Notes: a model not told the origin generated them from the sequence alone. A DNA stretch of 64,000 nucleotides from Nitrospira sp. (GCA_016784355.1 JADHUV010000004.1:48201-112200), one strand, 5' to 3'; positions 1,991 to 47,175 are shown, counted from the stretch's first letter. Numbers and translations are program-made.

Positions 1991-2368
1991 TTGTTTCATG
2001 TTATTGTTTCTGCAATGTATATACGCAAGTTCACAATAAGTATACTTTTTATCGCAGTCGTATTTTTCATGCTGGCCATGGCCCCGGCACCCCAGGTGGT
2101 AAAGACGGATCGGGACAGCATTATGCGGGGGAAAAAGATATTCGCCCAGAAATGCAGCAGGTGCCATGACCCCCTCAGTTATGAATACATAAAGGGCCCC
2201 GGTTTAAAGAAGGTGATGAAAAAAGCTAATCTGCCAGTAAGCGGCAGGGCTGCTACACCGGCCAACATTGCAAGACAGCTCTCCAGTGCATACAGAGATA
2301 TGCCGTCTTTCAGGGATCTTTTACCGGAAGAAGTTACGTCCATTATTGCCTACCTCAATACACTATAG
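1991..2368 (+). CDS. Small secreted monohaem c-type cytochrome; the real start is probably a later Met
   Basis: Hydrophobic N-terminus followed by a single CSRCH haem-binding motif. Confidence 0.65.
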   Translation: MFHVIVSAMYIRKFTISILFIAVVFFMLAMAPAPQVVKTDRDSIMRGKKIFAQKCSRCHDPLSYEYIKGPGLKKVMKKANLPVSGRAATPANIARQLSSAYRDMPSFRDLLPEEVTSIIAYLNTL

Positions 2369-2550
2369 TCATTAAGACTGCACCGGATATTCTCAACTTT
2401 TGATGTCTCCAAGTAGCGGACTGAAGCAGACAGGCATGGTTTGGCGTTGATTTTTCGGTCAGGTTGTGATATAAAAATAGTCTCTTTGCCCTTGCTAAAG
2501 AAGCATGGGCTATCCTTTTTCATTAGTAAAAGGACAACTCAAACGGAGGT

Positions 2551-2988
2551 ATGAGCATGAATTATTACGAGATGATCGTGATAATCGATTCCAGACTTGA
2601 TGACAGTGCAGCACAAGAGACTGTTACAAAGATGGGAGAGGTTATAACGCAGCTGGGTGGTGAAATCTTCAAGACTGAAAATTGGGGACACCGCAAACTT
2701 GCATATGAGCTTAATAAGCACCAGAAGGGTAATTACTTTCTTCTGCAATTTAAGACCCCCCCCGAGACAATAGCAAAACTCGAAAGGTTCACCAAGATAA
2801 CAGATGCCGTCATTAAAATGATGGTCGTCAGGCTGGTCAAAAAACAGCAGATAGACGCAATTTTGCCGAAGGCTCCCGAGGCGGTAGCGGAACCGACTCC
2901 GACTGATGAAGTACCGGAGACCTCACAGGAAACTGTAAGTGTGGATGCGGGTGCTGATGCTGGTGTGCCTGCTCCAGAGGAAGGGTAG
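2551..2988 (+). CDS. rpsF: 30S ribosomal protein S6
   Basis: NYYEMIVII...WGHRKLAY motif with an acidic C-terminal tail. It is first in an S6-SSB-S18 arrangement. Confidence 0.9.
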   Translation: MSMNYYEMIVIIDSRLDDSAAQETVTKMGEVITQLGGEIFKTENWGHRKLAYELNKHQKGNYFLLQFKTPPETIAKLERFTKITDAVIKMMVVRLVKKQQIDAILPKAPEAVAEPTPTDEVPETSQETVSVDAGADAGVPAPEEG

Positions 2989-2991
2989 ACA

Positions 2992-3399
2992 ATGTTTAAC
3001 AAGGTTATTCTTATGGGCAATCTTACGAGAGATCCGGAGATGAGATACTCGCCGCAGGGTACCTCTGTATGCAAATTCTCTATCGCCATAAATCGCAAGT
3101 TCAGGCAAGGTGAGGAGTTTAAGGAAGAAGTAACCTTTGTAAATATAGTCGTGTTCGGCAAGCAGGCTGACAATTCTGGTAAGTACCTGAATAAAGGAAG
3201 TAGTGTACTTATAGAAGGCAGGCTGCAGGAAAACAAGTGGGAGACCGAGGACGGTCAGAAGCGGAGCAGGATGGAGGTTGTCGCTCAGGATGTCAGGTTT
3301 ATGTCACAGAAGAATCAGAGCACGTCATCAGGTTCAGGCATTTCTGAAGGGGATATGACTATCCCGCCTCAGGAGACAACTGATATAGAGCCGTTTTAA
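2992..3399 (+). CDS. ssb: Single-stranded DNA-binding protein
   Basis: N-terminus VILMGNLTRDPEMRY and an acidic C-terminal tail DIEPF. Confidence 0.9.
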   Translation: MFNKVILMGNLTRDPEMRYSPQGTSVCKFSIAINRKFRQGEEFKEEVTFVNIVVFGKQADNSGKYLNKGSSVLIEGRLQENKWETEDGQKRSRMEVVAQDVRFMSQKNQSTSSGSGISEGDMTIPPQETTDIEPF

Positions 3400-6101: not shown

Positions 6102-6413
6102 CTAAAACATCCCTCTACTGTGTTCATCATCATGACAATGCACACAGAGATTTTCCCAGTTAGAACCATCGGGCGGATTATTCTGATGATCTCCATCTTT
6201 GTGGTGTACAGTTAGAAGTGTCAAATTATCAGGCTCAAATTCCCTTCCGCATTTCGCGCATATAAGTCCATGGATTTTTAGGGACTTTGCACGATAGTCA
6301 CTCTTTGGAGGCCCACCCTGTGTCAATGCCTTCACAATATCCGCAACTGACCGGGAATCGCTGTTATCTGTTGACGGCTTCTTAACGACTTTGAATGGTT
6401 TATTGTTTCGCAT
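6102..6413 (-). CDS. HNH endonuclease, YajD-like
   Basis: Zinc-finger pair CAKCG...HHKDGDHQNN...CVHCHDDEH. Confidence 0.7.
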   Translation of the reverse strand: MRNNKPFKVVKKPSTDNSDSRSVADIVKALTQGGPPKSDYRAKSLKIHGLICAKCGREFEPDNLTLLTVHHKDGDHQNNPPDGSNWENLCVHCHDDEHSRGMF

Positions 6414-6499
6414 ATTGTTCTATAGCATAGGTGTCAACAGGGCATCAGGTCAAGGGGTATTATATTCAGGAGTTCCCCCAATTTTCGGTTCTTTGTCGT

Positions 6500-6523
6500 C
6501 ATTCCCGCGAAGGCGGGAATTCA
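6500..6523. repeat. Inverted copy of the 24-nt core (CGTCATTCCCGCGAAGGCGGGAAT) of the 6840-7060 repeat
   Basis: It is the exact reverse complement of ATTCCCGCCTTCGCGGGAATGACG found in the tandem units. Confidence 0.8.
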
Positions 6524-6529
6524 ATCTTC

Positions 6530-6823
6530 TTACATTGTCAAGCTATCATATAAGTCCGCCCATTCAGGGTTATGTTCCTCAATAAGCCTGAGCTTCCATA
6601 CCCGATTCCATTTTTTCATTTGTCTTTCCCTCAGTAACGCTGTCTCGGTATCTCGTGCTATCTCATAGTAAACGAGCCGGTATATCCCATATTTCTTTGT
6701 GAAACCATCGACTTGGCCGTTTTTATTTTCATAAACCCGTTTCATTAGATTCGAGGTTACACCTATATACAAAGTCCCTCTTCTTTGGCTGGCCATGATG
6801 TAAATGTAAAAGTTCTCTTTCAT
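6530..6823 (-). CDS. GIY-YIG domain nuclease, UPF0213-like small protein
   Basis: YIYIMASQRRGTLYIGVTSNLMKRVYEN matches the GIY-YIG N-terminal motif. Confidence 0.75.
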   Translation of the reverse strand: MKENFYIYIMASQRRGTLYIGVTSNLMKRVYENKNGQVDGFTKKYGIYRLVYYEIARDTETALLRERQMKKWNRVWKLRLIEEHNPEWADLYDSLTM

Positions 6824-7830: not shown

Positions 7831-8301
7831 TTAATCCATATCTCTGATTCGTAGCCCAAGTTCCTTTTCCGCATGTTCACTGCCGTTTTCTGCGGCAACT
7901 TTCAGCCACGACAGCGCTTCCTGCTCATTAATATCAGTCCCGAGACCGAGAGAATAAATCTGATACATCATGAACTGGGCATGTGGGTGGTCTTGTTGGG
8001 CGGCCAGGCGATAAAGGTTTCGTGCTTTTTCGAAGTCTTGCGCCACATAATTGCCCATAAGATACAACTCGGCCAATAGTACATGGCCGGAGGCAATATT
8101 ATCATTGGAACTTCTTGAACACCAGTAAAATGCCTGTTCGTAATTCGGGCCCCTTGAAATATTTCCATAACTGTATTCATGACAGAAATTCTGCGTTAAA
8201 AAGCTGCTGTTCCGGATGTCCATATGTGTATTCTTCAGGCCGCATCCCGTCAGGATGAAAGCCAGCAAGGCCATACAGATAAGATATTTTTTAATATACA
8301 T
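7831..8301 (-). CDS. Sel1/TPR-repeat lipoprotein
   Basis: Lipobox LTGCG, and Sel1-like repeats of the form HAQFMMYQIY...G. Confidence 0.55.
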   Translation of the reverse strand: MYIKKYLICMALLAFILTGCGLKNTHMDIRNSSFLTQNFCHEYSYGNISRGPNYEQAFYWCSRSSNDNIASGHVLLAELYLMGNYVAQDFEKARNLYRLAAQQDHPHAQFMMYQIYSLGLGTDINEQEALSWLKVAAENGSEHAEKELGLRIRDMD

Positions 8302-8311
8302 AAATCACTCC

Positions 8312-10027
8312 TTACTTAATACATTTGCTGCTGCATTTGTATCTGTTTAATTTCCGCATCAGCGGCTTTTCCGGTTCTTTGGGAAGCATAGCACTTTGAG
8401 TACCGGGCAGTCTTACAATATGCGGCGTAATAAGCAGGACGAGTTCACTTTTCTCTTCTGATTCCTGCGTACTTGTAAATGCCGTTCCAATAACCGGAAG
8501 ATCTCCGAGAAGGGGGATTTTTCTCTCATTATTGGAGTAGGTAGTGCGGGTAAGCCCTCCCACTGCAATAGTTAAGTTATCTTTAGCAATTATAGTTCCC
8601 TGAAGCCTCGCGGTATTAATGGCATCGATTGGCAAGTTAAGAACCTTGCCTTCTGAAACCACGGGTATTATCGCTCCATTTGTTCGGACATCTGAGCTTT
8701 CCTGCTGGATATTCAGCGTAATCGTGCCATCAGCATTAATGAAGGGAATTATCTCGATAGTATTGCCTATTTCCTGTACTGACGTTTCAGGTACGATATT
8801 CTCACTATTGTCACTGATGATATTACCGTTTATGTCTACATTGGTGTTATTGCTCACACTGTTGTATCCTGTCACCAGAACGCGCTCATCTCCGACAAAA
8901 AGGCGCGCCGGACGGTTGTTCGATGCCAATATCATTGGGGACGAAAGTATGTTCACTCGGTTCTGCTGTTCCATCAGTTCCATATTGGCCCGCAGCCTGC
9001 CGTTCAGATACTCAAAGACAAAGGTGCCGGCGCCGGGCAGCGCATTATTACCGAGCAGGGCGGGAATGGTGCTTTCGGAAAAAGCCCCTCCTTCAATCTC
9101 ATAGTTAAATATTGAAGTAAAGTCATCATCTACCAGTACGTTGATGATGCGCATCTCCAGGAGTACCTGAGGAACGGGCCTGTCCAGCCCCTTTATCAGT
9201 TCTTGTATGCTTTTTAACGCAAGCTTGTCACTGGAGCGTACAATAATAAGGTTGTGCTCGAAGTTCGCGGTCAGATAAACAGGCGCTTCCTGCGCTGTAA
9301 GCGCCTGCAGCTGATCAGCTGATATCTGATTATAGCCGCCCCCGGTAGGTGTCAGCGCGGCAATCTGGTCAATGCTTAGTTCTCCCTTCACCTTCCCGGC
9401 CTGTCCGGTACTGTTTGAGTTGCTATTCGATGAATTATTCCCGGAGGAATTAAAGAAACTGTTGTTGGTTACGCTGTTAAAATCATCATTTCTTTTTTCA
9501 GCGGAAATTCCCGCGAACCCTGCACTCCCCGGACTGCCGCTGCCGCCTGACTGCCTGCGCGTCACACGGTCCCCGTAGAGGTCTTCAATTGCATTTGCAA
9601 CCAGTTCCACATTCGGGTTGCTGAGTGTGAATATTTTAGTCTCGTCGTCATGGTGTACTATCAGGTCTTTACGGTACTCTTCGGTAGTCATGATGCGATA
9701 GGTAGCGGTATCACCGTCCTGCCGGTACCAGAGATTATTAATACGGCATATAGTTTCAATGACGTGCTTAACAGAAACGTCTTTAAGGTAGATAGTCACG
9801 GTTGTTTCAGCTGCCGATGAAGTAGCAACAATATTGGCGCCGGACATTTCAGAAATAACACGTATAACGTCAATAAGACGGGCGTCTCTGTATTCCAGTT
9901 CACTGATAATCATGCCGGAGATAACATCCGGTCCAGCCGCCCCGCTCCAGGTCCCGGCAAAAGCTGAAACAGGTAGCATCGCTGCAATTAAAATAAAAAC
10001 AATATATCGCATAATATTATCTGACAA
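8312..10027 (-). CDS. gspD: Secretin (GspD/PilQ family) outer-membrane channel
   Basis: C-terminal secretin motif GGLTRTT...IPLLGDLPVIG...LLITPHIV. Signal peptide present. An internal Asn/Ser-rich low-complexity stretch is also present. Confidence 0.85.
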   Translation of the reverse strand: MSDNIMRYIVFILIAAMLPVSAFAGTWSGAAGPDVISGMIISELEYRDARLIDVIRVISEMSGANIVATSSAAETTVTIYLKDVSVKHVIETICRINNLWYRQDGDTATYRIMTTEEYRKDLIVHHDDETKIFTLSNPNVELVANAIEDLYGDRVTRRQSGGSGSPGSAGFAGISAEKRNDDFNSVTNNSFFNSSGNNSSNSNSNSTGQAGKVKGELSIDQIAALTPTGGGYNQISADQLQALTAQEAPVYLTANFEHNLIIVRSSDKLALKSIQELIKGLDRPVPQVLLEMRIINVLVDDDFTSIFNYEIEGGAFSESTIPALLGNNALPGAGTFVFEYLNGRLRANMELMEQQNRVNILSSPMILASNNRPARLFVGDERVLVTGYNSVSNNTNVDINGNIISDNSENIVPETSVQEIGNTIEIIPFINADGTITLNIQQESSDVRTNGAIIPVVSEGKVLNLPIDAINTARLQGTIIAKDNLTIAVGGLTRTTYSNNERKIPLLGDLPVIGTAFTSTQESEEKSELVLLITPHIVRLPGTQSAMLPKEPEKPLMRKLNRYKCSSKCIK

Positions 10028-10592
10028 TGATCATACCCCCCAATGTTCCAACCTCCACAACGATACTCAGTCTGTCCATTTTCTGAATTTTTATTACTTC
10101 CTCGGGGCCGGCAGGGCTGATGCTTATCTGATCTCCGGCCCGGACCATATAGACGCCGCTGCCAGCTACTTCCAACAGAGCAATCGAGTCGTCAGGCGTG
10201 TCTTTGTAGGTGATACCCCTTAGTGTAAGTTTCGGGATACGCACTGTTTCTGGAGCTGCTCTGAATAGAGGGGCACTGCCATAAGCAATAGCAGTCTCCA
10301 TTTCCGGCGTAACGGTAAAAGGGTCCCTTACCTCCCGGTTATAGGGTTTGTGAGTGTCAGTGATGGGCGCGCGGGTATCATCATTAGCGCCCTGTTTGCG
10401 CATATATTTCTCCAGTTCCCCGTAGTGGTCATTCATAGTATTCATCAGAGTAGGCAGTTTTTCCATCAATGCCCTGCCCGGGTCGCTCTCCTCGGCATAG
10501 GCATTTATATGAAACAGGGACACAATAATAATTCCTGACACTAAAAAACATGCTGCACGATATTTTCTGTAATAATTTAATCTCATTTTCAT
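10017..10592 (-). CDS. Pilus/secretion-system accessory protein, GspC/PilP-like
   Basis: Signal-anchored 191-aa protein lying between gspF and the secretin. Confidence 0.35.
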   Translation of the reverse strand: MKMRLNYYRKYRAACFLVSGIIIVSLFHINAYAEESDPGRALMEKLPTLMNTMNDHYGELEKYMRKQGANDDTRAPITDTHKPYNREVRDPFTVTPEMETAIAYGSAPLFRAAPETVRIPKLTLRGITYKDTPDDSIALLEVAGSGVYMVRAGDQISISPAGPEEVIKIQKMDRLSIVVEVGTLGGMIIVR

Positions 10593-11806
10593 CCTCCTGA
10601 AATGGCAAAAACAGCGCTAAAAAACGCGATATATACAAAACCGACCATGCCCCCTATGAGCAGGATGGCCACAGGCTCCATTAACGCCGCCAGGACTTTG
10701 CTTTTGACCTGAAGAGCATTTTCAAAATAGTTTCCGGCTTCATCCATAATCTGGTCCAGACTTCCCGAGCTTTCTCCTACAGAAGCCATTTGCTGAATCA
10801 ATGGACTAATATGGGCATGCCGGAAACTCTCTTCGAGTGTGCCGCCGCGCGATATGTTTGAGCCGGCAGAAATAATTGAATCAGAGACAACGCGGTTTCC
10901 TACAAGGTCTTTTACAATGCCGAGTGATTCTACGATTGTAAGGCCGCTTCTCAGCAGTACAGACAGTCCCCAGCAAAGTTGAGACATGCAGGAAAGGTGA
11001 ACGACATGCCCGAACACCGGTATCATAAGAATGATGCGGTCGATGGCCCGGCGCGGCCCCGGTTTTTGATAGGAATAGACAATAGCGGCACAGGTCATCA
11101 TGAAAACTATCATCAATAAAATGCCCCAGGACTGAGCAAAATCACTTACATCAATTAATGCCTGTGTCATGGGGGGTACTACATTTCCGCGCCGTTGAAT
11201 GAATTCTGCAAACTTCGGGATTACCCCGACAGCAAGAAAAATAAACAGCCCGATAGCGAACAGCAGTGTAATGGAAGGATAAAGCATGGTGACTATTGTC
11301 TGACGCTTAAGTTCAGCCTTACGTTCCATATGGCCGGCAATACGTTCGGCGATAATATCCAGTTCGCCGGATGCTTCCGCACTGCGGACCATATGACACA
11401 CAATCCCCGGAAATACAGAGGGGTGCGCGCCCAGTGCCTGCGAGAAACGGTTCCCTCTTGTGACCTGTCTAAGGATGTCTTTCACAATGCTTTTCATGCG
11501 TCCCGTCATCAGGCGTTCGATTGACCGTAAACTTTCTGCCAGTGGCATACCGGAACGCAGCAGCACGGATAACTGGCGGAAAAAGAATATTTTACGCATT
11601 ACTGTTACAGGCATGAGATCTGACAACATATTGCGCACATCATTATTCTTTTCAATTGCAGCAGGGTCATCATCTGTATTTATCGATGTTACAAAAACGT
11701 CCCTGGATTTCAGTTGTGCTCTTGCGGAGCGCATATCAGGGGCTTGAATAATACCTTTAATCTCTTCACCATTTTCTCTTAGCGCTGTGTAGCGGAAACC
11801 CGTCAT
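10589..11806 (-). CDS. gspF: Type II secretion / type IV pilus platform protein (GspF/PilC)
   Basis: 405 aa with three transmembrane segments and two repeated GspF domains. Confidence 0.85.
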   Translation of the reverse strand: MTGFRYTALRENGEEIKGIIQAPDMRSARAQLKSRDVFVTSINTDDDPAAIEKNNDVRNMLSDLMPVTVMRKIFFFRQLSVLLRSGMPLAESLRSIERLMTGRMKSIVKDILRQVTRGNRFSQALGAHPSVFPGIVCHMVRSAEASGELDIIAERIAGHMERKAELKRQTIVTMLYPSITLLFAIGLFIFLAVGVIPKFAEFIQRRGNVVPPMTQALIDVSDFAQSWGILLMIVFMMTCAAIVYSYQKPGPRRAIDRIILMIPVFGHVVHLSCMSQLCWGLSVLLRSGLTIVESLGIVKDLVGNRVVSDSIISAGSNISRGGTLEESFRHAHISPLIQQMASVGESSGSLDQIMDEAGNYFENALQVKSKVLAALMEPVAILLIGGMVGFVYIAFFSAVFAISGG

Positions 11807-13458
11807 GCAACCTCCTTGTCCGGGCTGGCGGCAGCATTACAGAGACCGAGCTTTTTCAACTCTTCCATAGAAGTAATCCCCTTTAAGACTTTATCGCGGC
11901 CGTCGTCTGCAAGCCTGAGATGGGCGGTCGCGTGTTCGGTTATCTCACTTTCACTTGCAGCTCGCTGAATCAGATGACCTGTCTTTTCATCAAGCCATAA
12001 TGTCTCATACAATGCTGTTCGTCCCTTATATCCCGTACCCATGCAATGTGCACACCCCCGCGGCCTGAAGATGATAGTTGCAGCATCCTCCTGCAGAGAC
12101 ATACCAATGTTTTCTTCTGCAGATGCTGCTATAGGCTCTTTGCACAGGGAGCAGAGACAACGTACCAGACGCTGGGCAATCACGCATAAGAGTGTAGAAC
12201 CTATGAGATAACGTTCTACTCCCAGGTCAGCTAACCGTCCTATGGCAGAAACAGCGTCATTCGTGTGAAGTGTAGAAAACACGAGGTGTCCGGTCATGGC
12301 AGACTTAACGGCAATATCCGCTGTTTCATTGTCACGTATTTCCCCGACCATGATAACGTCAGGATCATGGCGCAGGAACCCTCTGAGAGCGGATGCAAAG
12401 GATACTTTAGTGCTGATCTGCACCTGGGCTATGCCTTCCATTGCATATTCTACAGGGTCTTCTACTGTAAGAATATTAATGTCTTCACGGGCAATCTCCC
12501 TCAGTGCCGCGTAAAGGGTCGTGGACTTTCCGCTGCCTGTCGGGCCAGTAAGCAGTACCATGCCGTGGGACTTTTCTATAGCTTTCCGAAAATGGTGAAG
12601 AGTACCTTCTCCCATGCCGATATTGTCCAGTGTTAATTTTTCAGTTTCCGAACCAAGAATCCTGAGTGTGGCACGCTCTCCAAAGCGGGTAGGCATGGTT
12701 GCAGCGCGAATATCGAACTCCCTGGCGGTTTTTATGTTGAATGTAAAACTACCGTCCTGTGGATAACGCTGTTCTGAAATATCCATATGGGCCAGCACTT
12801 TCATGCGGCTGATAAGTGCCTGTCCTTCTTCTGTCCTGTATTCAAAAGGATATTGCTTCAGATGGCCGTCTATTCTCAAGCGGACCTGAAACAGGTCCTG
12901 CCGCGGCTCCAGATGGATGTCGGAAGCGCGATGCAGATATGCCTCTTTTAATATCCGATCCAGAACATCTACAGGATCAAATGCTTCACTGCCAAACTGT
13001 ATGTCTGACTGTGCAAATGGTTTACTTACGGCTTTTGACAATGCATAGCGCAGTTCCTCAGGATTGGTCAGAACAATTTCCACAGGACTGTTCAACGCGC
13101 GCTTGGCCTGTTCAATACCGGAATGGTCTTCCGGGTCAGTGATGGCAAGAAATATAACATGATCATGTTTTATCCCCTGAACAATGGGGACAATAAGCCG
13201 TTTTTGTACCAGATAGGTCGGCATTGATTTTAAAGCCTTCATGTCAATATTCAGTCCTTTCCCGGTGACATAATCCATGTTATGAAGCTCCGCATAAGCC
13301 CGGTAAATCGAAGACACCGGAACCCTGTGCATTATACTCAGTGACTCCAGAAGGTCCTGGCGCAGTCTCCTGGCCTCTTTCTTCACGATCATCATCTGCT
13401 CCGGTGTGACCAGCCCCTGCTGTATTGCCGCATTTATTAGTGATGATGTCTTGATCAT
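11803..13458 (-). CDS. gspE: Secretion/assembly ATPase of the GspE/PilB/MshE type
   Basis: N-terminal MshE/GspE-N domain, Walker A GPTGSGKST, and a tetracysteine motif CxxC...CxxC. Confidence 0.9.
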   Translation of the reverse strand: MIKTSSLINAAIQQGLVTPEQMMIVKKEARRLRQDLLESLSIMHRVPVSSIYRAYAELHNMDYVTGKGLNIDMKALKSMPTYLVQKRLIVPIVQGIKHDHVIFLAITDPEDHSGIEQAKRALNSPVEIVLTNPEELRYALSKAVSKPFAQSDIQFGSEAFDPVDVLDRILKEAYLHRASDIHLEPRQDLFQVRLRIDGHLKQYPFEYRTEEGQALISRMKVLAHMDISEQRYPQDGSFTFNIKTAREFDIRAATMPTRFGERATLRILGSETEKLTLDNIGMGEGTLHHFRKAIEKSHGMVLLTGPTGSGKSTTLYAALREIAREDINILTVEDPVEYAMEGIAQVQISTKVSFASALRGFLRHDPDVIMVGEIRDNETADIAVKSAMTGHLVFSTLHTNDAVSAIGRLADLGVERYLIGSTLLCVIAQRLVRCLCSLCKEPIAASAEENIGMSLQEDAATIIFRPRGCAHCMGTGYKGRTALYETLWLDEKTGHLIQRAASESEITEHATAHLRLADDGRDKVLKGITSMEELKKLGLCNAAASPDKEVA

Positions 13459-14573
13459 AATTGTCCCGTTCCGCTTAATCTCTGCTGCGTTTCCTGTCTC
13501 AGGCCGTAGAGAATCTCCCTAAAGTGATCAGAGTTATGCGCCAGCCTGGAGGCTGTGTCTTCTGATATCATCCTCTCTCTGACCCGTTCTGCCAGCGCAT
13601 GGTCCAGTAACTGATTGCCCCGGGCACGCCCCGACTGCATTATCGAACGTATCTGTTCAGGTTTGTGGTTGCGGATCAGATTGGCAACGGCATTGTCCAC
13701 AATTAATATCTCATTGACAGGGACACGCCCCCTGCCGTCAACGGTTTTTACAAGCATCTGCGTTACAACGGCCCGCAGCACTCTCGACAGCTGCTGGCGA
13801 ACGCCAGTCTGTTCATTACCGGGGAAGGCGCCGACAAGACGGTCTATGACACCGACAGCATCATTTGTATGCAATGTGGAGAATACCAGGTGCCCTGTTT
13901 CAGCCGCCTGCAAAGCGGCATGCATGGTAGGAACATCACGCATTTCACCAAGCAGGATAACATCCGGGTCTTCACGTAATGCCGCACGGATCGCATGTGC
14001 ATAAGATGGTACATCATTGCCGATTTCTCGCTGGTGAATCATGGCTTTTTTGTTGCAGTGCACGAATTCGACAGGGTCCTCTATCGTAATTATATGACAG
14101 TATCGTCTGTTGTTGATCTCATTGATAATGCTTGCCAATGAAGTGGATTTACCACTCCCGGTTGTCCCTGTAAACAGTATCAGCCCGTCTTTCAGTTCAG
14201 CCAGTTCATAAAGCTGTGGAGGAAGTTTAAGTGACTCTATGCTTGCCGATACATCTTCCAGTCTTCTTATGGCCAGGGCTTTTGTACCATGTTGATGATA
14301 AATATTTATACGGAACCGTATGTTCTTTACTGATGTATAACCGGTATCAATCGTACGCTGCTCTTCAAGGATCTTCTTTCTCCTGCTGTCAAGGAGCTTT
14401 TCAGTAATCCCGTTGATTACTTCATGGTCAACAGGCAGTGTTGATGTGTCAGGGCGCAATTCGCCGTTGACGCGGTATGCGGGATGGCTGCCTTCGGACA
14501 AATGGAGGTCCGATGCCCCCAGCTGGCAGCAGACCAAAAGATAATGCTCTAATATGTCAGGTCTTTCTTTCAT
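13455..14573 (-). CDS. pilT: PilT/PilU-family retraction-type ATPase
   Basis: 372 aa. ASDLHL, GTTGSGKST, TIEDPVEF and AETGHLVFSTLHTN are all present. Confidence 0.85.
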   Translation of the reverse strand: MKERPDILEHYLLVCCQLGASDLHLSEGSHPAYRVNGELRPDTSTLPVDHEVINGITEKLLDSRRKKILEEQRTIDTGYTSVKNIRFRINIYHQHGTKALAIRRLEDVSASIESLKLPPQLYELAELKDGLILFTGTTGSGKSTSLASIINEINNRRYCHIITIEDPVEFVHCNKKAMIHQREIGNDVPSYAHAIRAALREDPDVILLGEMRDVPTMHAALQAAETGHLVFSTLHTNDAVGVIDRLVGAFPGNEQTGVRQQLSRVLRAVVTQMLVKTVDGRGRVPVNEILIVDNAVANLIRNHKPEQIRSIMQSGRARGNQLLDHALAERVRERMISEDTASRLAHNSDHFREILYGLRQETQQRLSGTGQL

Positions 14574-14574
14574 G

Positions 14575-15195
14575 TTATAAACTCACTGTCAGCATTGCTT
14601 CAATGTATCTGCTGGTGCCGGACGGAGTTGCTTTAACAGCCTGTATCTGCAAACGCATAATCACGGCATTAAAGGGCAATACCGCCAGCTGTCGTATGAA
14701 TTCGTTGACACTGATAAAAGCTCCTTGCAGTTTCAGGTCAAACAGTGGACGTTCATGTACGATTTGATTCCCGGCTTTCTTTGTCCCGGTGAGACTGTCT
14801 ATACGGAGCGAAGAGCGGTTTATTTGCAGTACCTTCATATTGTTCTTTTCTGCAAGTATGGTAATTTCACCTTTAGCATTTGCAAGGGCGTCACTGCTGA
14901 GAAGGTCAATTAAACCTTTTGAAAACCCTTCAAGCAGACGGTCAGTCTCTTCAATGCCCCGGGTCAGTTCGGCAATTTCTTTTTCCATGGCCTCCATGTT
15001 CTGAGCGCCGGTGCGGATCGGTCGCAGGCTGTTGCGCTCCTTCATTGTCTCCGCCAGTATCTCATTCATGCGCTTTCCCTCCGACTGCATCGACTTGACC
15101 CTTAACGTCAGATAACCGGCAGCCAAAATAGCAATTACAAGAAACAGGAGTAATGCCCTCTCCCGGGCATTTATTTTCTTCCACCATTGTGTCAT
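14575..15195 (-). CDS. GspM/PilO-like inner-membrane assembly protein
   Basis: One N-terminal transmembrane segment and a coiled coil, in the position following the GspL-like gene. Confidence 0.5.
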   Translation of the reverse strand: MTQWWKKINARERALLLFLVIAILAAGYLTLRVKSMQSEGKRMNEILAETMKERNSLRPIRTGAQNMEAMEKEIAELTRGIEETDRLLEGFSKGLIDLLSSDALANAKGEITILAEKNNMKVLQINRSSLRIDSLTGTKKAGNQIVHERPLFDLKLQGAFISVNEFIRQLAVLPFNAVIMRLQIQAVKATPSGTSRYIEAMLTVSL

Positions 15196-16901
15196 GATTT
15201 CCGCTCCATCAGAATGAAGGAAAACTCATAACCTTCCGCATCCTTCCATCCGCGGCCTGCAGCGCTTGGACTTTCGCTTATGTACAGGTTCCACTCCGCA
15301 ATATTGCGCGACAGGGACTGGTGGAACATATCAATATGGCGCTGCTCCAATGCCCAACCCTTTATGTGAAAGAGAAACCACTCCTGCTCGTCTATACTTT
15401 CGAGCACAACACCATCCGGGATGCTTCCGGTTATTGCCTCAAGAAAACCGGTCATCACCTGCTGCCTGTGCATAAATACTCTTTCAACTGCATCTTTCCG
15501 ATGTTTCAGACTGGTATTTTTGTCTTCCATTGCATCCCGTTTAGCAACAAGTTTTTGATATTCAGCGCTTTTATTAGACATTTTTTCATTTGCGCGCGCA
15601 ATTGTCCTGACCTCACCCTGCAGCGTTTCCGTCTCTGCCATTATTTTCCCCATAGATCTACTATGAGATATTTCGTAGAAACCAATAAATACAAGCAGAC
15701 ATGCCGTTGCAATATTAAGCCAGGCCATGGGCCGCTTATGCATGGCCGGCAGAGGAGGTTCTCCTGGAAGAAAGGGCGCAAGAAGATGAGATGACATACC
15801 CAGATAATGGCGCGAGCTCCCCAACAACGCATACCATGACTCTTTTTGAGACAACAGGGTACAGTCAAATTCTCCATTCAGTGAGAGGGGAAGCACTTTT
15901 CTATTCATCCGCTGCGCAAGGGCCGTCCCTAGATATTCTTTGTTAGGGTGTGATCCGGTAATGACCATTGCCTCCATATCCGCGGTAAGAACGGGACGGC
16001 ATAGTTCTGCAAGATCCTCCTCGCTAACAGAAATATTACAGGTCCTTCTATAGGCGCTTTGTGTGATCTCACCCTGTTCAATACTGGATACAGTAATATG
16101 TCCCTGCTCTATTTCCACCAGGCATTGTGCAGCAGGGGAGAGGGGCAGAAGTGCCGCGCTGGTCAATGCTTCAGGATATATTCTTTCCAGCCGAATTTCG
16201 CTGTTTCTCAGCGCCTGAAGCCATTCCCTCCCGATAGTTTCGTGTATTGCGCAGCATAATGTAAGCCCCGGCTGACTGCCTGCGGTTGTCGTGCTGTCTG
16301 ACCAGCCGCAATTCAGAGAATCTTCCAGGAGATGGAGCCGTTCCTGAATAGCAAGGCAATCTTCCAGCTGCTCACGATCAATAAAACCTTTTTCTATTGC
16401 TATTTCTCCAAAACGGGCAGGCAGCGTACCCCCGTGTCTTCCTGCGTAGCTTTCTTGCTTATCAAGCGTATCCAGTATTTGATCACGCTGAATGGCATCT
16501 ATATGTCCACGGGCTATCATTACCCAGCCGATATTGGGAGGAAGGGCAAGATCCTGTGTAAGCTCGTCCATTTCCCACCGGACCAGTTCTTCAATCTGTC
16601 CGGGAGCAATCTTCTTCCCCTGCGGAACGGGCAGTTTCAGCAGGGCAGGAACTGCGCCGGCACATACAAGCACAGCTTCTTTCGGTAAGGAAAGCCCTGC
16701 CTGTTTAAGTTGGCTCATTACCTGTTCAAGCGCCTGCCGGGCGACTACAGACCGGGTTTCTGCTGTCCCTTCAACCCGGAGAGATTCACCTTTTTTGGTT
16801 ATTATCATTGCCTTCAGGCCGAAGCCGTTTGCTTCAAGCGCCAATAACCGTTTTTTTTTTCTTTTTGTTAGCAGAGAGACGTGTTTAAGTATATTTTTCA
16901 T
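15192..16901 (-). CDS. gspL: GspL-like protein, a PilM-type cytoplasmic domain fused to a PilN-type TM/periplasmic domain
   Basis: 569 aa with a central transmembrane segment and a coiled coil after it. Codons 14-17 contain an A10 tract. Confidence 0.6.
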   Translation of the reverse strand: MKNILKHVSLLTKRKKKRLLALEANGFGLKAMIITKKGESLRVEGTAETRSVVARQALEQVMSQLKQAGLSLPKEAVLVCAGAVPALLKLPVPQGKKIAPGQIEELVRWEMDELTQDLALPPNIGWVMIARGHIDAIQRDQILDTLDKQESYAGRHGGTLPARFGEIAIEKGFIDREQLEDCLAIQERLHLLEDSLNCGWSDSTTTAGSQPGLTLCCAIHETIGREWLQALRNSEIRLERIYPEALTSAALLPLSPAAQCLVEIEQGHITVSSIEQGEITQSAYRRTCNISVSEEDLAELCRPVLTADMEAMVITGSHPNKEYLGTALAQRMNRKVLPLSLNGEFDCTLLSQKESWYALLGSSRHYLGMSSHLLAPFLPGEPPLPAMHKRPMAWLNIATACLLVFIGFYEISHSRSMGKIMAETETLQGEVRTIARANEKMSNKSAEYQKLVAKRDAMEDKNTSLKHRKDAVERVFMHRQQVMTGFLEAITGSIPDGVVLESIDEQEWFLFHIKGWALEQRHIDMFHQSLSRNIAEWNLYISESPSAAGRGWKDAEGYEFSFILMERKS

Positions 16902-17947
16902 TAATCTATCTCCAGTACTAGTGACGGCGGCGACATTCCGGGAAATATATTGAATTTTAAATATATATTTTTTCCTGTAGCGTCATAAACAACGTTTCCA
17001 TCCGTAGGCGTAACTCCAATTACTTTATCATTGTCAATCAAAACAAGAAGATAGGTGCCAAAAGGAATACGCTCACCTGCTGGAATGGTAATCTCAGCTG
17101 AATCAGTTACCTTATGCGTCATAAGGATATTACTTTTAGGCCCCACAGCGATGGGTTTCTGGTCAGCACTGCGATAGGTAACAGGCCATTCAGATTGCCC
17201 CCCGCTCGTAGTATTTTTATATACAAAAAGTGCAATAAAGTAGCCATTAGTATTAGTGATAATGGATGAGCCTTTATTGTTAAGTGTAATATTGATCTGA
17301 TTTACACCGATACTCCAATCATCGGGATATATATCTGCCGAGCGGTCGGGAAAAGTAGGAGTTATAGTTGATGCTGGTTGCAGGGAGATCTGATATTCGA
17401 TGGCCCCTGCCGGATCAGTAACAGTAAAATATCCTCCCCATGCGTCACGCAGTTCAGGAGTTGAGTCAAGTAGCGTCACAAGAGAAAGTGGGCGGCGGAA
17501 GCCCTTAAACATTGTCAGTTCTTTACTGTTCCCGCCGGCAACAGCCACTTTAACTGATTTATAAACGGTCGCTTCTGCGTAACGATAGTAAGGCTCTTTT
17601 TCGCCGTAGGGCTGCTGTACAGTGGTGCCATCAACTGCCCTATGCAGGGGCCAAAGAGGATATGGTGAAGATATCTCAGGCAATTTCCCATTATCAGCGA
17701 CATATCCTGAAAGGAGCGGTTGTTCTCCATCATATGTTATACGTATAACTGATTTATATATTTGATAAAGTTTCTGTACCGAAGCATCATAACGCTGCTG
17801 GTTGTCATTATTTTCAACAAAAACCATGGAAATGCTCGCCAGCACACCGAGAAGGAAAAGGACCAGCACCATTTCCAGCAGAGTAAATCCCCTCATTCCA
17901 CTAATATTATTTATACCGTTTGTCATGTTAGTTCCTAGAATATACAA
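16901..17947 (-). CDS. Large pseudopilin/minor pilin with a prepilin N-terminus
   Basis: GFTLLEMVLVLFLLGVL class-III signal, and cleavage motif G/FTLLE. Confidence 0.75.
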   Translation of the reverse strand: MYILGTNMTNGINNISGMRGFTLLEMVLVLFLLGVLASISMVFVENNDNQQRYDASVQKLYQIYKSVIRITYDGEQPLLSGYVADNGKLPEISSPYPLWPLHRAVDGTTVQQPYGEKEPYYRYAEATVYKSVKVAVAGGNSKELTMFKGFRRPLSLVTLLDSTPELRDAWGGYFTVTDPAGAIEYQISLQPASTITPTFPDRSADIYPDDWSIGVNQINITLNNKGSSIITNTNGYFIALFVYKNTTSGGQSEWPVTYRSADQKPIAVGPKSNILMTHKVTDSAEITIPAGERIPFGTYLLVLIDNDKVIGVTPTDGNVVYDATGKNIYLKFNIFPGMSPPSLVLEID

Positions 17948-18666
17948 AGCACAAGATCATCATTAGTGCCGGTTACAGTATATTTATTGCTGCATGCAGT
18001 TATGACTCCACTCTGGTAAATCCCGTCTTCACCCATGCTTACGATACGCGCCAGGCTGGTGTTGTTGAGATCAAAAAACAGATAGGGTCTGCCGTAACGG
18101 CTGATTGGCTGATCAGTACTTGCCTGTCCAACGAGACGCCAGTCAAACAAGCATGCGCTATTAGCAGCCACTTCTGAACAGGGAGTATCCAGGTTTGGCC
18201 TGATTTCCCCATTATTAACGGGTGCATAGGCAAAGGGATCTGGAATTGCCCGCTGCAATGTAACGGCTGTCGTGTCAATTACATAAGGAAGTCCGCTGCC
18301 GTCAAGCTTGAGATTGTCTCCTATATCTACCCGCCCGCTGTCCCCTCCGCTTAAATATGGGCCCCGCCATCCGGTTTTATAATCAACTCTCCAACTGACA
18401 AGCGTTCCCTGCTCAAAGAGAAATGAGATATCAGCTGCCGAATTCTGAACTGGAAATATTTGATTGTCCTGACGGAAACGGAGAAGGGTTTGCCGTATCT
18501 GCTCCATCTCAAAGCGCGCCGCTTCTATTTTAGCGGTATCTCCGATTCTGGAGGCAGGCGACCAGATAATCGCCCCTGCTATTACCGCCAGTATGGCGAC
18601 TACGACAACCAGTTCGAGTAATGTAAATCCCGACTGATTAATATTTTTAGTTATAGAATGTACCAT
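17935..18666 (-). CDS. Pseudopilin/minor pilin
   Basis: N-terminal hydrophobic pilin helix with motif GFTLLELVVVVAILAV. Confidence 0.75.
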   Translation of the reverse strand: MVHSITKNINQSGFTLLELVVVVAILAVIAGAIIWSPASRIGDTAKIEAARFEMEQIRQTLLRFRQDNQIFPVQNSAADISFLFEQGTLVSWRVDYKTGWRGPYLSGGDSGRVDIGDNLKLDGSGLPYVIDTTAVTLQRAIPDPFAYAPVNNGEIRPNLDTPCSEVAANSACLFDWRLVGQASTDQPISRYGRPYLFFDLNNTSLARIVSMGEDGIYQSGVITACSNKYTVTGTNDDLVLCIF

Positions 18667-18748
18667 TTAATTATGGACCGCAGGATTCATAAGGTAAGAC
18701 ACGGGGCAGCATTAATGCTGCCCCTGTATCTTTTATCAGATAAATACC

Positions 18749-19735
18749 TTAGCTTTTCTGACCTCTGAATTCAGCGATTTCCTCATCCAGGAAGTCACCC
18801 CGGGCATCAAGTATTGCCTGGACAATACCGCCTTGTGTGATATTGATAAGCGCTACGTAGTGAGCGTACTTATCCTTGCCAACCTGTCCGTAGAAAGGTG
18901 CCTTGGAAAATGGCGAGTTGGCCTTGCCAACAAGGTCTGAAGCCTGTCCAATTCCAACTCCAACGAGTACATCATTGACAGCTGCACCGACCTTCTTGTT
19001 GTTGTAACCATCGGTTCCGGCATTCCATACCATTGCAGGAGCGCCTGCAAGAAGAGGGGCTGAGAATCCGCGACCACGATTTTCCCATGATGTAGCTGTG
19101 TCTGGGCGTGGATCTTCAAATGCGTGGTTCATGATGTCCGATTTAACAAGCAGACCGGCCCCCAGAGCTGCATTGGTACCGCCGATTACTGTAGGAGTTG
19201 CATCGACTGAGGTTGCATCATTGTCACATGCTGCAGTAACTGCATAACGTAGAGTCGTAATGCCTGAATTGCTTAAATCAGTGGCCTCTGCAGCAGTCAA
19301 TGCCCTGAGAGTGAACTTCCCTGCGAGCTTGGAACCAAGGCCGCCGCCAATACCGGATACATCTGACTGTCCGCCAAATTTATAGGCTGCTGTTACTGTG
19401 GCGCTGTCCGGCGTTGCAGTGTTATTGATTGTCAGAGATGAATATAAAATTTCATCATAGGCGGGATTATAAGGCAAACAAGCCAGAGATTCCATTTCAG
19501 ACGGAAGACGGCCCTCTGTTGCCTGATAAATCTGAAGGGCATCCTGCACCCCTGCCAGTGTCTGTGTTGCCACGCCACGGGCAGCAGTCGTATCTTGACT
19601 TCCGAATGATGATATCATCGCTCCTCCAATGATGGCCATCACCGTGACGACTACAAGCAGCTCAAGCAAGGTGAAACCGTCCTCGCCCTTTGTATGATTA
19701 AGAACTTTTTTTGATTTGTTTAGAAGGTTACTCAT
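18749..19735 (-). CDS. Long type IV pilin-like protein, probably the major pilin or a pseudopilin
   Basis: GFTLLELLVVVTVMAIIG prepilin motif. 328 aa. First gene of the cluster. Confidence 0.75.
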   Translation of the reverse strand: MSNLLNKSKKVLNHTKGEDGFTLLELLVVVTVMAIIGGAMISSFGSQDTTAARGVATQTLAGVQDALQIYQATEGRLPSEMESLACLPYNPAYDEILYSSLTINNTATPDSATVTAAYKFGGQSDVSGIGGGLGSKLAGKFTLRALTAAEATDLSNSGITTLRYAVTAACDNDATSVDATPTVIGGTNAALGAGLLVKSDIMNHAFEDPRPDTATSWENRGRGFSAPLLAGAPAMVWNAGTDGYNNKKVGAAVNDVLVGVGIGQASDLVGKANSPFSKAPFYGQVGKDKYAHYVALINITQGGIVQAILDARGDFLDEEIAEFRGQKS

Positions 19736-19886
19736 ATTATTTATTTACCTTTCTGTTTGGGTTTATTCAGCATGATCTCTTAATCTGAAAGCCTATCCTG
19801 CTGTGCTATAGTTACTTTTTCTTTTCATAAATCATGCCTTCCGGCCCTCCCAGACAGGTCTTTTATAGCGGTTTATTCCATAGGCG

Positions 19887-20102
19887 TTACCTCCTTAGCT
19901 TTTCAGGATCATAATCTACTACAAAGCGATACTGTTTTCCGCAGTGCAGGATTACCTCCTTTTGTTCACGGCGTAAAATACGCATCTCTACCTTAAGCTC
20001 ACCATATCCGTTATGTCTGAATATCTCATCATAAAGCGTAAGCAGCCGGTCCTTTACAACTTCAGTTTTCGATGTTTTTTGTAAAATCTGTTTTTTATCC
20101 AT
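19887..20102 (-). CDS. Small hypothetical protein
   Basis: 71-aa ORF just upstream of the pilin gene. Confidence 0.3.
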   Translation of the reverse strand: MDKKQILQKTSKTEVVKDRLLTLYDEIFRHNGYGELKVEMRILRREQKEVILHCGKQYRFVVDYDPEKLRR

Positions 20103-20141: not shown

Positions 20142-20459
20142 TTAAAGAGTGCTTCCTGAAAAAGCTTTTGTTGGCTCCAATTCCTTCAGACAACGAAGAC
20201 AGTTGCGCAGCGTGCACAATCCACATGAGTGATGCATTATCACAGGAATCCCTGAGGCCTTTGCCATGGCGGATGCCTCATGTTTTGCATTATGCGACAC
20301 CTTGTTTGTAAATATAATTAAAGCATCCATGCTTCCCAGTTTTGCCGGTATGCCCTGTTTGTGAGAATTGAAAACCTGTAACTTGATCCCAAGCATTTCT
20401 GCCTCTTTAATGTAATGTCTTTCAAGTCTCTTCATCCCGCCGATAAGCGCTACACACAT
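20142..20459 (-). CDS. Small Cys-rich protein, possibly DUF2325-like
   Basis: C-terminal motif HHSCGLCTLRNCLRC. Confidence 0.3.
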   Translation of the reverse strand: MCVALIGGMKRLERHYIKEAEMLGIKLQVFNSHKQGIPAKLGSMDALIIFTNKVSHNAKHEASAMAKASGIPVIMHHSCGLCTLRNCLRCLKELEPTKAFSGSTL

Positions 20460-20709
20460 AAATTTATTAACCTCCCAGCCTGAGCAAGCAACAAAGGGTT
20501 GCTGGATTAGTTATGATAATGATAACCATTATCAATATACCATTTTAAAAATATACTGTCAAGAGTTTTTTTTCAGTAGTGTGTAGAACACATAAACTTT
20601 CCGATTAAAATTAGCTCAACGGGAGGGCTAATGATGGAAAGGACAGAAGTACAATTTTCCGCCGGGCAATATGTGCAGAAGTAGAAAAATAAAGAACTGA
20701 ATCAGCTTG

Positions 20710-46218: not shown

Positions 46219-47175
46219 ATGTACGCTCGTCATATGCTGTCTGCAGACCCGGATTATTCCAGAAGGATATTATGTATTGTGTTTGCAGTGGTGTTAAGTA
46301 TCACGGCCGGTTGCTCCCCTGATGAAAAACCCAAAAAGGTCAGTCTCTATGCAAAGTCTGAGGCAGGCGCACATCGCCTGCATAGTCCCAAGCCTAATAC
46401 TTTATGGTTTGGTTTTGATTTGCGTCTTGGACCCAAAGAAGAGATCAGTATTTACTCTCCTTTTTTAAAATATCTTGAGAGCAGTACGGGAAACAGGTTC
46501 CGGATAAAGTTTACAAAAGATTATGAGGATACCGTTGGCAATCTTGGAAACGGCTCCACTCACTTTGCAGCGCTCGGGACTCTCAGTTATGTGATAGGGG
46601 AGAAAAAGTACGGTATTAAATATCTTGTCAGCGGAGTAAACCGTGAAGGAGATGCGCGCTACCATGCCATGATAGTGGTGCCTCCTGACAGTGATATACA
46701 AACTATTGCGGACATAGCCGGGCGATGCTTTGCCTTCGGTTCTAATATGTCTACTCAGGGGCACCTTATTCCGAGAAAAATGCTTGAAGACGGCGGAGTT
46801 ACTTTAGACCGGCTGAAAAAATACTTTTATGCCGGTTCTCACTCTAATGCGGTAAAGGCAATCTTAAACAGGGAATGCGACGCTGCAGGGCTGCAGGATA
46901 CGCTGGCCAATCGGCTGGCAGCCGAGGGCAAGCTCAGGATCATCAAAATATCAGAACCTTATCCGAGCAGTGTCATTGCTTATAACAATTCTATAGATGC
47001 CGCAATAGTGCAGACCGTTAGAAAGGCACTTTTGGAGTTTGAACCTCAGGGGCGAAATAAAGATCAGATGTATGATTGGGACCGCACTGAGATGCCCCTT
47101 GGCTTTACCGGTATAAGTGAGCTGGAACTTCAGAAGGTCAGAGTGCTCGCCGAGAGGTATGATCTTCTGCAATGA
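46219..47175 (+). CDS. PhnD/SsuA-like periplasmic substrate-binding protein, of the phosphonate-binding family
   Basis: Signal and lipobox present. Periplasmic-binding-fold motifs. The stop overlaps the kinase start (ATGA). Confidence 0.6.
   Translation: MYARHMLSADPDYSRRILCIVFAVVLSITAGCSPDEKPKKVSLYAKSEAGAHRLHSPKPNTLWFGFDLRLGPKEEISIYSPFLKYLESSTGNRFRIKFTKDYEDTVGNLGNGSTHFAALGTLSYVIGEKKYGIKYLVSGVNREGDARYHAMIVVPPDSDIQTIADIAGRCFAFGSNMSTQGHLIPRKMLEDGGVTLDRLKKYFYAGSHSNAVKAILNRECDAAGLQDTLANRLAAEGKLRIIKISEPYPSSVIAYNNSIDAAIVQTVRKALLEFEPQGRNKDQMYDWDRTEMPLGFTGISELELQKVRVLAERYDLLQ

Follow-up and report, generated by a model that had tools for sequence, protein, structure and literature searches.

A conserved gene cluster with its own PilT and a Fur box at its promoter: a probable iron-regulated, retractile type IV pilus

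Gene content of the locus

The window analysed here is a 64,000-nucleotide stretch of DNA from an assembly labelled Nitrospira sp. (GCA_016784355.1, JADHUV010000004.1:48201-112200). Between positions 19735 and 7831 its minus strand carries eleven packed open reading frames (ORFs) for a type IV filament machine, which encode, in this order, a putative major pilin, two minor pilins, a PilM-PilN fusion, a PilO-like protein, a PilT-family ATPase, an extension ATPase, an inner-membrane platform, an accessory protein, an outer-membrane secretin and a Sel1 lipoprotein. Adjoining genes share overlaps of 1-11 nt, which is consistent with a single operon. The exact sequence is also present in a metagenome-assembled genome (MAG; GCA_014382155.1), labelled 'Nitrospira sp.' or 'bacterium'.

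A sequence-only reading of the window had described this cluster as a hybrid of a type II secretion system (T2SS) and a type IV pilus, spanning positions 8312-19735. All eleven ORFs that it listed exist and have the sizes it gave, but only ten of them lie within that interval, the Sel1 gene being located at 7831-8301. The gene list stands as given, but it overlooked a conserved 71-aa ORF, a promoter and a Fur box upstream. The assigned domain identities agree with Pfam and NCBIfam matches for the pilins, PilT, the extension ATPase (T2SSE plus MshEN), the platform (T2SSF) and the secretin (Secretin), and the tetracysteine motif of the 551-aa GspE-family protein is legible in the sequence as CxxC...CxxC. 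Here, we report that the cluster combines standard components of type IV filaments in an arrangement that is conserved and widespread but so far unstudied.

A PilT beside an extension motor

The 372-aa ATPase (13455-14573, minus strand) is identified by its sequence relationships as a true PilT and is predicted to be a retraction motor. On the PilT/PilU model TIGR01420 it scores 401.9 bits, above the cut-off of 319.1, compared with 142 bits on the GspE model and 126 on the PilB model. The same ranking is obtained against solved structures, with 277 bits for Aquifex PilT, 270 for Pseudomonas PilT and 215 for PilU, followed by 106 for GspE and 99 for PilB. The alignment with PilT is full-length and includes the Walker A, Walker B and His boxes, with AVANLIRN where PilT has AIRNLIRE. 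Sequence identity amounts to 41-42% with the PilT proteins of P. aeruginosa, A. aeolicus and G. sulfurreducens, and to 29% with the E-type ATPase. A neighbour-joining (NJ) tree places the protein among the PilT proteins and well away from the E-type ATPases. The profile score, the structure-based scores and the tree thus bear out the proposal that the cluster encodes both an extension-type and a PilT-type ATPase; clustering of the 372-aa protein with assembly ATPases, the outcome named beforehand as contradicting this proposal, was not observed. Among the PilT proteins linked to related clusters, identity is 55-59% between those of the gamma-type loci and 44-45% to those of the distant variants, and in the NJ tree they form one system-specific clade that is sister to canonical PilT.

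The 551-aa ATPase (11803-13458, minus strand) belongs to the GspE/PilB/MshE family of extension ATPases, matching T2SSE with 417 bits and MshEN with 30 bits; its N-terminal MshEN/GSPII domain is degenerate. Its scores on the curated models are 479.1 for GspE (TIGR02533, cut-off 630.25) and 474.5 for PilB (cut-off 675.65), and against solved structures 350 bits for EpsE and 334 for PilB. The platform protein of the GspF/PilC family (405 aa, 10589-11806, minus strand; T2SSF 171 bits) scores 279.6 on the GspF model (cut-off 424), and 251.5 and 213.9 on PilC (cut-off 700).

Synteny across phyla

The eleven genes recur in unchanged order in at least 12 diverged loci with protein identities of 25-61%, a recurrence far beyond chance. 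The hosts comprise MAGs assigned to Ectothiorhodospiraceae, Chromatiaceae and Alteromonadaceae, together with Moritella, a 'beta proteobacterium' MAG, Rubrivivax gelatinosus, Desulfobulbus, Lentisphaeria and the present MAG, and the same order is found in many independent assemblies and in complete genomes. PilT is kept in every locus examined and lies between the M-like gene and the E gene in related loci. The sole difference occurs in a Lentisphaeria locus (L025, 10001-20948), in which a PilT-like ATPase follows the PilO/GspM-like gene and a second T2SSE-family ATPase is encoded at the end of the operon. A loss of the E-type ATPase was considered for a Lentisphaerales locus (L017) and rejected, as L025 has an E-type ATPase at the operon end and L017 stops near the end of its contig. 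From the conserved gene order, together with a PilT clade of its own, it follows that both motors have been inherited jointly with the other parts of the system. The description of the cluster as a T2SS/type IV pilus mosaic therefore has to be abandoned in favour of a co-inherited module with the same order across phyla.

The origin of the module in this MAG is a separate matter. The GC content of the cluster (window 8001-20000) is 46-50%, compared with 39-42% in both flanks; genes for GIY-YIG and HNH endonucleases lie just downstream (6102-6823); and the closest homologues are found in Proteobacteria, though the MAG is labelled Nitrospira. These features suggest horizontal acquisition or a binning question. 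The GC contrast and the endonuclease neighbours make a transfer of the whole module plausible, which still does not amount to a mosaic. Among the syntenic hosts, Rubrivivax gelatinosus (L027) is cultured, and sources of the pilin or of the small 71-aa protein also include Moritella, Desulfobulbus elongatus and Neptunomonas; the occurrence in a cultured species and in named genera makes experiments feasible.

A triad of genes for a MoxR AAA+ protein, a DUF58 protein and a TgpA-like transglutaminase was evaluated as a candidate part of the system and rejected. It is present only in a gammaproteobacterial MAG (L005, 19352-21782) and in the Lentisphaerales MAG (L017, 2399-6279), and is missing from the other loci.

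A Fur box at the promoter

Upstream of the structural genes we identified a sigma-70-type promoter (20534-20562, minus strand) consisting of TTGACA, a 17-nt spacer with an extended -10 TG, and TATATT. With 11 of 12 positions it is the best promoter-like site between 7000 and 21000, as judged by its match to the consensus. A Fur box (GATAATGATAACCATTATC, 20515-20533) that matches the consensus at 18 of 19 positions abuts the -10 hexamer and precedes the first ATG by 56 bp. No other site in the 64-kb window has three or fewer mismatches, where 0.02 such sites would be expected. The promoter is followed by a gene for a 105-aa DUF2325 protein (20142-20459, minus strand; Pfam DUF2325 92.4 bits), which has a GGAGG ribosome-binding site before its ATG, then by the 71-aa ORF and then by the pilin gene. 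No DUF2325 homologue was found beside the cluster in related loci, and published work on DUF2325 proved uninformative.

Counterparts of the Fur box exist elsewhere. In a Lentisphaeria locus, two boxes that match at 17 of 19 positions precede the pilin gene by 85 and 146 bp, where 0.03 would be expected. Sites with at least 14 of 19 matches precede the pilin gene in 9 of 14 loci, often as arrays shifted by 6 bp, and their density there is 1.91/kb, compared with 0.48/kb in other intergenic DNA. Iron genes adjoin the cluster in six loci of different phyla: an imelysin-like Peptidase_M75 gene with DHOR in two of them (L005, 2446-5354; L028, 3191-7071), hemP in three (L007, 6192-6395; also L012 and L013), ferritins in the latter two (iron genes at 2107-3098 and 4140-4439 of L012, and at 19006-21676 of L013), and a TonB receptor with a Fe ABC transporter in Rubrivivax (L027, 3854-9762). 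Tandem ferritins and a di-haem peroxidase are among these neighbours, and in L005 a Fur-box array (up to 16 of 19 matches) precedes the M75 gene. Both the Fur box at the promoter and the iron genes beside related loci are newly recognized here. Taken together, the near-perfect box, its counterparts in related loci and the iron-gene neighbours make Fur control of this pilus system a prediction well supported by sequence, and we infer that in this window it may extend to the whole operon. The pilA genes of type IVa pili (T4aP) often have a sigma-54 promoter; no such promoter was found upstream of the pilin gene, and sigma-54 matches across the window were below chance.

The 71-aa ORF upstream of the pilin gene (19887-20102, minus strand), kept across related loci, is a newly recognized twelfth conserved gene. 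It adjoins the pilin gene in 8 of 8 gamma-type loci (46-55% identity), as well as in Rubrivivax and Desulfobulbus, and its family comprises 2022 clusters, all of them unnamed. The protein has no Pfam or NCBIfam match. Its core reads VKxKLxELYDEVFxHDGYGDxRVEMRILRRxQKEVIIHCGKQYRFVVDY, with invariant His30 and Cys54, and some orthologues have an Arg-rich tail of ERR repeats. The orientation of the gene is reversed in L005, where it occupies the other strand, and this suggests that its product is regulatory and not structural.

A PilM-PilN fusion as the putative inner-membrane scaffold

The 569-aa protein (15192-16901, minus strand) was modelled with AlphaFold (AF2) from 85 family members with a mean predicted local distance difference test score (pLDDT) of 92.1. 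The model consists of an actin-like cytoplasmic domain of ~390 residues, a transmembrane helix with a coiled coil (~391-493) and a periplasmic alpha/beta domain. In a Foldseek search, the N-terminal ~390 residues matched PilM best (5eou, E=4.9e-13), followed by FtsA and then by the cytoplasmic domain of GspL (~1e-7). As modelled, the protein is a PilM domain fused to a PilN-like part in the arrangement of PilN and the GspL periplasmic region. The earlier designation as a 'GspL-like PilM-PilN fusion' is accordingly retained for the fusion, but the structure is nearer to PilM than to GspL. An exhaustive profile search found 509 clusters in this family, 235 of them below 1e-30, and the family is without a Pfam model. 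A word-based search had returned three relatives, so that the apparent rarity of the family was an artefact of the method.

A helical insert at residues ~100-190 of this protein holds the family-conserved segment RFGEIAIEKGFIDREQLEDCLAIQ (163-186, R163-Q186), the sole match in the whole cluster to a relaxed form of the MshEN motif for binding of cyclic di-GMP (c-di-GMP). When the insert profile was compared with the PDB, the relevant matches were c-di-GMP-binding modules only: Thermus PilF (2.3e-7), MshE-N (6.9e-4) and PilF GSPII-B (4e-3). The same relaxed pattern is absent from the 551-aa extension ATPase and from six of its orthologues. The MshEN motif consists of two tandem 24-residue stretches of the form RLGxx(L/V/I)(L/V/I)xxG(L/V/I)(L/V/I)xxxxLxxxLxxQ with a 5-residue spacer, and c-di-GMP binding by MshE requires both (PMC5013675). 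In the 569-aa protein, the helix pair before the motif (N123...) is a degenerate copy, and the match to NF053729 reaches 21.7 against a cut-off of 38. Owing to this degenerate upstream copy and the need for two motifs in MshE, we propose c-di-GMP binding by the fusion as a tentative hypothesis, one that falls somewhat short of being probable. A response regulator with GGDEF and EAL domains is encoded upstream of one related pilus cluster (L007, 537-2990), an observation of relevance to the c-di-GMP motif of the fusion.

The next gene encodes a 206-aa bitopic protein (14575-15195, minus strand) that matches Pfam T2SSM with 25.3 bits (E=2e-5), under the cut-off of 27.8. Its profile matches PilO chains at E=0.03-0.05, and the position of the gene is conserved. 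The evidence for a PilO/GspM-like protein is weak but consistent.

From the platform to the outer membrane

A 191-aa accessory protein (10017-10592, minus strand) is encoded between platform and secretin, at the same position in all loci (30-41% identity). It begins with a signal or anchor, ends in a conserved beta domain, matches T2SSC faintly (E=0.11) without a PDZ domain, and its profile gave no PDB sequence match. Its place between platform and secretin and its conserved C-terminal beta segment tentatively suggest a PilP/GspC-HR-like protein that would link the inner-membrane complex to the secretin.

The secretin (571 aa, 8312-10027, minus strand; Secretin 122 bits) comprises a signal peptide, an N0-like domain, a Gly/Ser/Asn-rich linker, one N-domain and the secretin core; no AMIN domain was detected in it. 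It scores 149 on the GspD model (cut-off 351.35), 117.7 on PilQ (284.35) and 104.7 on MshL (250.2). The gene that follows it, also in related loci, encodes a 156-aa lipoprotein (7831-8301, minus strand) with the lipobox LTGC and Sel1 repeats resembling tetratricopeptide repeats (TPR; Pfam Sel1 59.5 bits), for which the best NCBIfam match is the AlgK TPR lipoprotein (32.8 bits). PilF, PilW and Tgl are TPR lipoproteins that act as pilotins, and by analogy with these the Sel1 lipoprotein may be a pilotin-like helper of the secretin.

A large major pilin

All three pilin-like proteins contain the N_methyl cleavage and methylation motif of prepilins, G|FTLLE. The first pilin gene of the operon (18749-19735, minus strand; N_methyl and TIGR02532) encodes the putative major pilin of 328 aa, with a 20-residue leader, cleavage at G|FTLLE, an alpha1 helix at 23-74 and a beta-rich head of ~250 residues; the mature form has 308 residues. 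The AF2 model (pLDDT 90.9, predicted template-modelling score 0.84) displays a 52-residue alpha1 helix and the large head, and the helix is the only part that resembles solved pilins (Geobacter PilA, PulG and Thermus PilA). Foldseek returned no PDB match for the head domain. The family comprises at least 182 clusters with lengths of 295-395 aa, so the pilins are indeed unusually long, as had been remarked. Identity between loci is 50-56%, comparable to that of the ATPases, while the PilM-PilN fusion shares only 28-37%.

The best-conserved segment of this family is the C-terminal DxRGDFLDEExAE, in which G313 of the RGD is invariant and R312 and D314 occur in at least 90% of the family. In the window, this acidic segment, the most conserved part of the head, reads DARGDFLDEEIAE (residues 310-322). 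The RGD/acidic segment could be a metal- or ligand-binding site.

The 82-bp gap after the major pilin gene contains a hairpin (18703-18724) formed by a perfect 9-bp palindrome, GGGGCAGCA-TTAA-TGCTGCCCC, and followed by a weak T-tract. It is possibly an attenuator or an RNA stabilizer that would set the ratio of pilin to machinery, which fits a subunit produced in excess.

Two minor pilins follow. The 243-aa protein (17935-18666, minus strand; N_methyl 32.4 bits), with orthologues of 42-50% identity, is covered by the GspG and GspH models at its N-terminus only and under their cut-offs. The 348-aa protein (16901-17947, minus strand; N_methyl 21.3 bits) has orthologues of 25-34% identity, and its ORF begins at TTG; the public gene call starts seven codons later, at the ATG at 17926, and yields 341 aa. 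An extra gene of ~197 aa precedes the orthologue of the 348-aa pilin in some loci.

Comparison with known machines and competing explanations

The proposed atypical architecture is supported by the NCBIfam scores, since no curated model of a T2SS, a T4aP or a mannose-sensitive haemagglutinin (MSH) pilus fits the cluster: the extension ATPase, platform and secretin have near-equal scores on T2SS and T4aP models, all under the curated cut-offs. The Pfam families T2SSE and T2SSF also include PilB and PilC, so that much of the T2SS appearance of the cluster results from family names. The occurrence of PilB, PilT, PilM, PilN and PilO in one locus is already known from other type IV pilus clusters.

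The cluster shares with the T4aP a PilT above its cut-off, a PilB/GspE motor with a tetracysteine motif, a PilC-type platform, a PilM fold, a putative PilO-like protein, a secretin gene followed by one for a TPR-like lipoprotein, and pilins with phenylalanine at +1 and glutamate at +5. Nevertheless, there are distinct differences. PilM and PilN are fused and carry the helical insert; the PilB, PilC and PilQ scores are far under the equivalog cut-offs; the AMIN domain and PilY1 are absent, and there are only two or three minor pilins. All genes reside in one operon, and PilT belongs to a separate clade. T4aP pilins have ~150 aa and leaders of 6-7 residues, whereas the major pilin here has 328 aa and a leader of 20.

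Considering the gene content and synteny together with the Fur box, we regard it as probable that the cluster encodes a self-contained, retractile type IV pilus induced by iron starvation, which represents a distinct, uncharacterized lineage and not a chimera of a T2SS and a type IV pilus. The promoter with the Fur box would drive the DUF2325 gene, the 71-aa gene and then the structural operon; under iron starvation Fur would leave its operator and the operon would be expressed. The pilins would be processed by a prepilin peptidase encoded elsewhere, and the 551-aa ATPase with the platform would assemble the mature pilin of 308 residues into a filament that passes through the secretin. The dedicated PilT would depolymerize the filament, giving cycles of extension and retraction, while the PilM-PilN fusion would provide the docking site for the motors, and its inserted MshEN-type motif may allow it to sense c-di-GMP. 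Regulation and neighbourhood suggest adhesion to, or capture of, iron sources.

Several points weigh against this pilus. It is known here from its genes alone, and a search of the window ORFs with 150 aa or more found no prepilin peptidase. For the ATPase, the platform, the secretin and the N-termini of the pilins, the NCBIfam scores slightly favour the T2SS models. The pilin equals the motors in conservation, which better suits a pseudopilin in the periplasm, as in a T2SS, than a pilus subunit exposed at the surface, and a filament of 308-residue subunits may, we infer, be broad relative to the secretin channel. The Fur box lies ~800 bp from the pilin gene, with DUF2325 first, so that control of the pilin would depend on read-through, and a Fur-like site with at least 14 of 19 matches is missing in 5 of 14 related loci. 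Only one of the two tandem MshEN motifs is recognizable in the 569-aa protein. Finally, the NJ tree of the ATPases contains few references and carries no support values.

The principal alternative is a specialized T2SS, induced by iron starvation, in which PilT would retract an endopilus and an iron-scavenging protein would be exported, by analogy with Hxc, the phosphate-starvation T2SS of P. aeruginosa. The top sub-threshold NCBIfam scores of the relevant parts are those of GspE, GspF, GspD and GspG, the pilin is conserved like the motors, as is GspG, and the bitopic L-like and M-like proteins, the latter with its T2SSM match, are T2SS-like as well; the Fur box and the iron neighbours, including Peptidase_M75/DHOR at two loci, would suit nutrient-specific secretion. 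However, PilT is encoded in every locus examined, and to our knowledge T2SS lack it. Searches of the cluster with Pfam and NCBIfam models found neither a GspC with a PDZ domain nor a GspH-I-J-K set: the GspH and GspI models cover only the N-termini of the cluster pilins, with 17-33 bits against cut-offs of 44-80, and only two pilins exist beyond the major one. The secretin is shorter and without the four-N-domain architecture of GspD, in the 569-aa protein the cytoplasmic domain resembles PilM more than it does GspL, and no conserved candidate cargo gene was found beside the cluster across related loci. The major pilin is about twice the size of GspG, and we know of no pseudopilin that resembles a 308-residue subunit. 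We therefore consider such a T2SS unlikely, although it is the strongest of the rivals; a retractile secretion pilus, as the sequence-only reading had suggested, is possible.

The probable iron-regulated pilus could also be taken further, to an iron-harvesting device. Its large, markedly conserved pilin head would bind an iron source outside the cell (such as a mineral particle, a chelate or a host protein), PilT-driven retraction through the secretin would draw this source to the cell envelope, and the TonB, hemP, M75/DHOR or ferritin functions encoded nearby would take over, with Fur as the control and c-di-GMP as the tuning signal, read by the PilM-PilN fusion; the machine would possibly represent a PilT-retaining lineage between T4aP and the T2SS/MSH clade. 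We consider this extended version speculative and, as a whole, unlikely.

A divergent MSH-type adhesion pilus controlled by c-di-GMP, like Vibrio MSHA but with its own PilT, is distinctly improbable. In the MSH system, encoded in the order mshIJKLMNEGF-BACD, MshI is a PilM-PilN fusion and MshJ is PilO-like; corresponding proteins are found here, together with an MshEN Pfam domain in the ATPase and an MshEN-type c-di-GMP motif in the system. The motif, however, resides in the PilM-like protein instead of the ATPase, from which both c-di-GMP motifs are missing, and the secretin stays far below the MshL cut-off. In addition, PilT is encoded inside the operon, no mshM-, mshN- or mshF-like genes are present, the gene order differs, and the pilins are twice the size of MshA. 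The PilT-dependent retraction reported for MSHA pili (PMC7096442), on the other hand, would be in keeping with an MSH-type pilus.

The weakest explanation, a chance juxtaposition or recombination of T2SS and type IV pilus parts or else a binning or assembly artefact, could invoke the GC contrast, the GIY-YIG/HNH neighbours and the closest relatives in other phyla, but it is refuted by the identical order in independent assemblies and complete genomes. The short gene overlaps and the co-inheritance of the cluster-linked PilT proteins as one clade also speak against it, and we give it next to no weight.

Literature searches turned up no description of this architecture. Denise et al. (2019) were left with 884 type IV filament systems, termed 'generic', in which an ATPase, a platform and a pilin are present but no specific model fits (PMC6668835); the present cluster would probably fall among them, and the passages of that paper that deal with such systems do not describe its architecture. 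In Legionella, PilA2 is a type IV pilin linked to iron acquisition (PMC13170364), but the relevant passages concern ordinary T4aP pilins and contain no dedicated machine that is controlled by a Fur box and combines a PilT of its own with a large pilin. On a 199-kb plasmid of Candidatus Manganitrophus (Nitrospirota; CP114559.1, 67047-92627) we observed a type IV pilus-like cluster of another kind. It encodes a 553-aa PilM fusion, a 1613-aa hypothetical protein, prepilins of 398 and 501 aa, two GspE-family ATPases, a platform and a PilT.

Implications

If the cluster does encode such a pilus, a widespread machine has gone unstudied, with hundreds to thousands of protein clusters in Proteobacteria, Desulfobacterota, Lentisphaerota and a Nitrospirota-labelled MAG. 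Three unusual traits would come together in it: a pilin of double the usual size, conserved to the same degree as the motors and with a head that has no counterpart among solved structures; a second-messenger motif relocated to the PilM-like scaffold instead of the motor ATPase; and conserved Fur control with iron-gene neighbours. Type IV filaments would then be tied to iron nutrition in environmental bacteria, and the system would offer a testable case of the coordination of extension and retraction motors by a single fused scaffold.

Unrelated features of the window

At 47172-50071, outside the cluster and without relation to it, the genes for a histidine kinase with a HAMP domain and for a sigma-54 activator of the NtrC type are followed by a perfect sigma-54 promoter (TGGCACTGGTTTTGCA, 50056-50071), which lies before a gene for a solute-binding protein. 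Further along, at 54432-56377, an AAA_21 gene for an AbiEii-like ATPase is paired with a RloB-like gene, and the two likely form a defence or toxin-antitoxin-type module.

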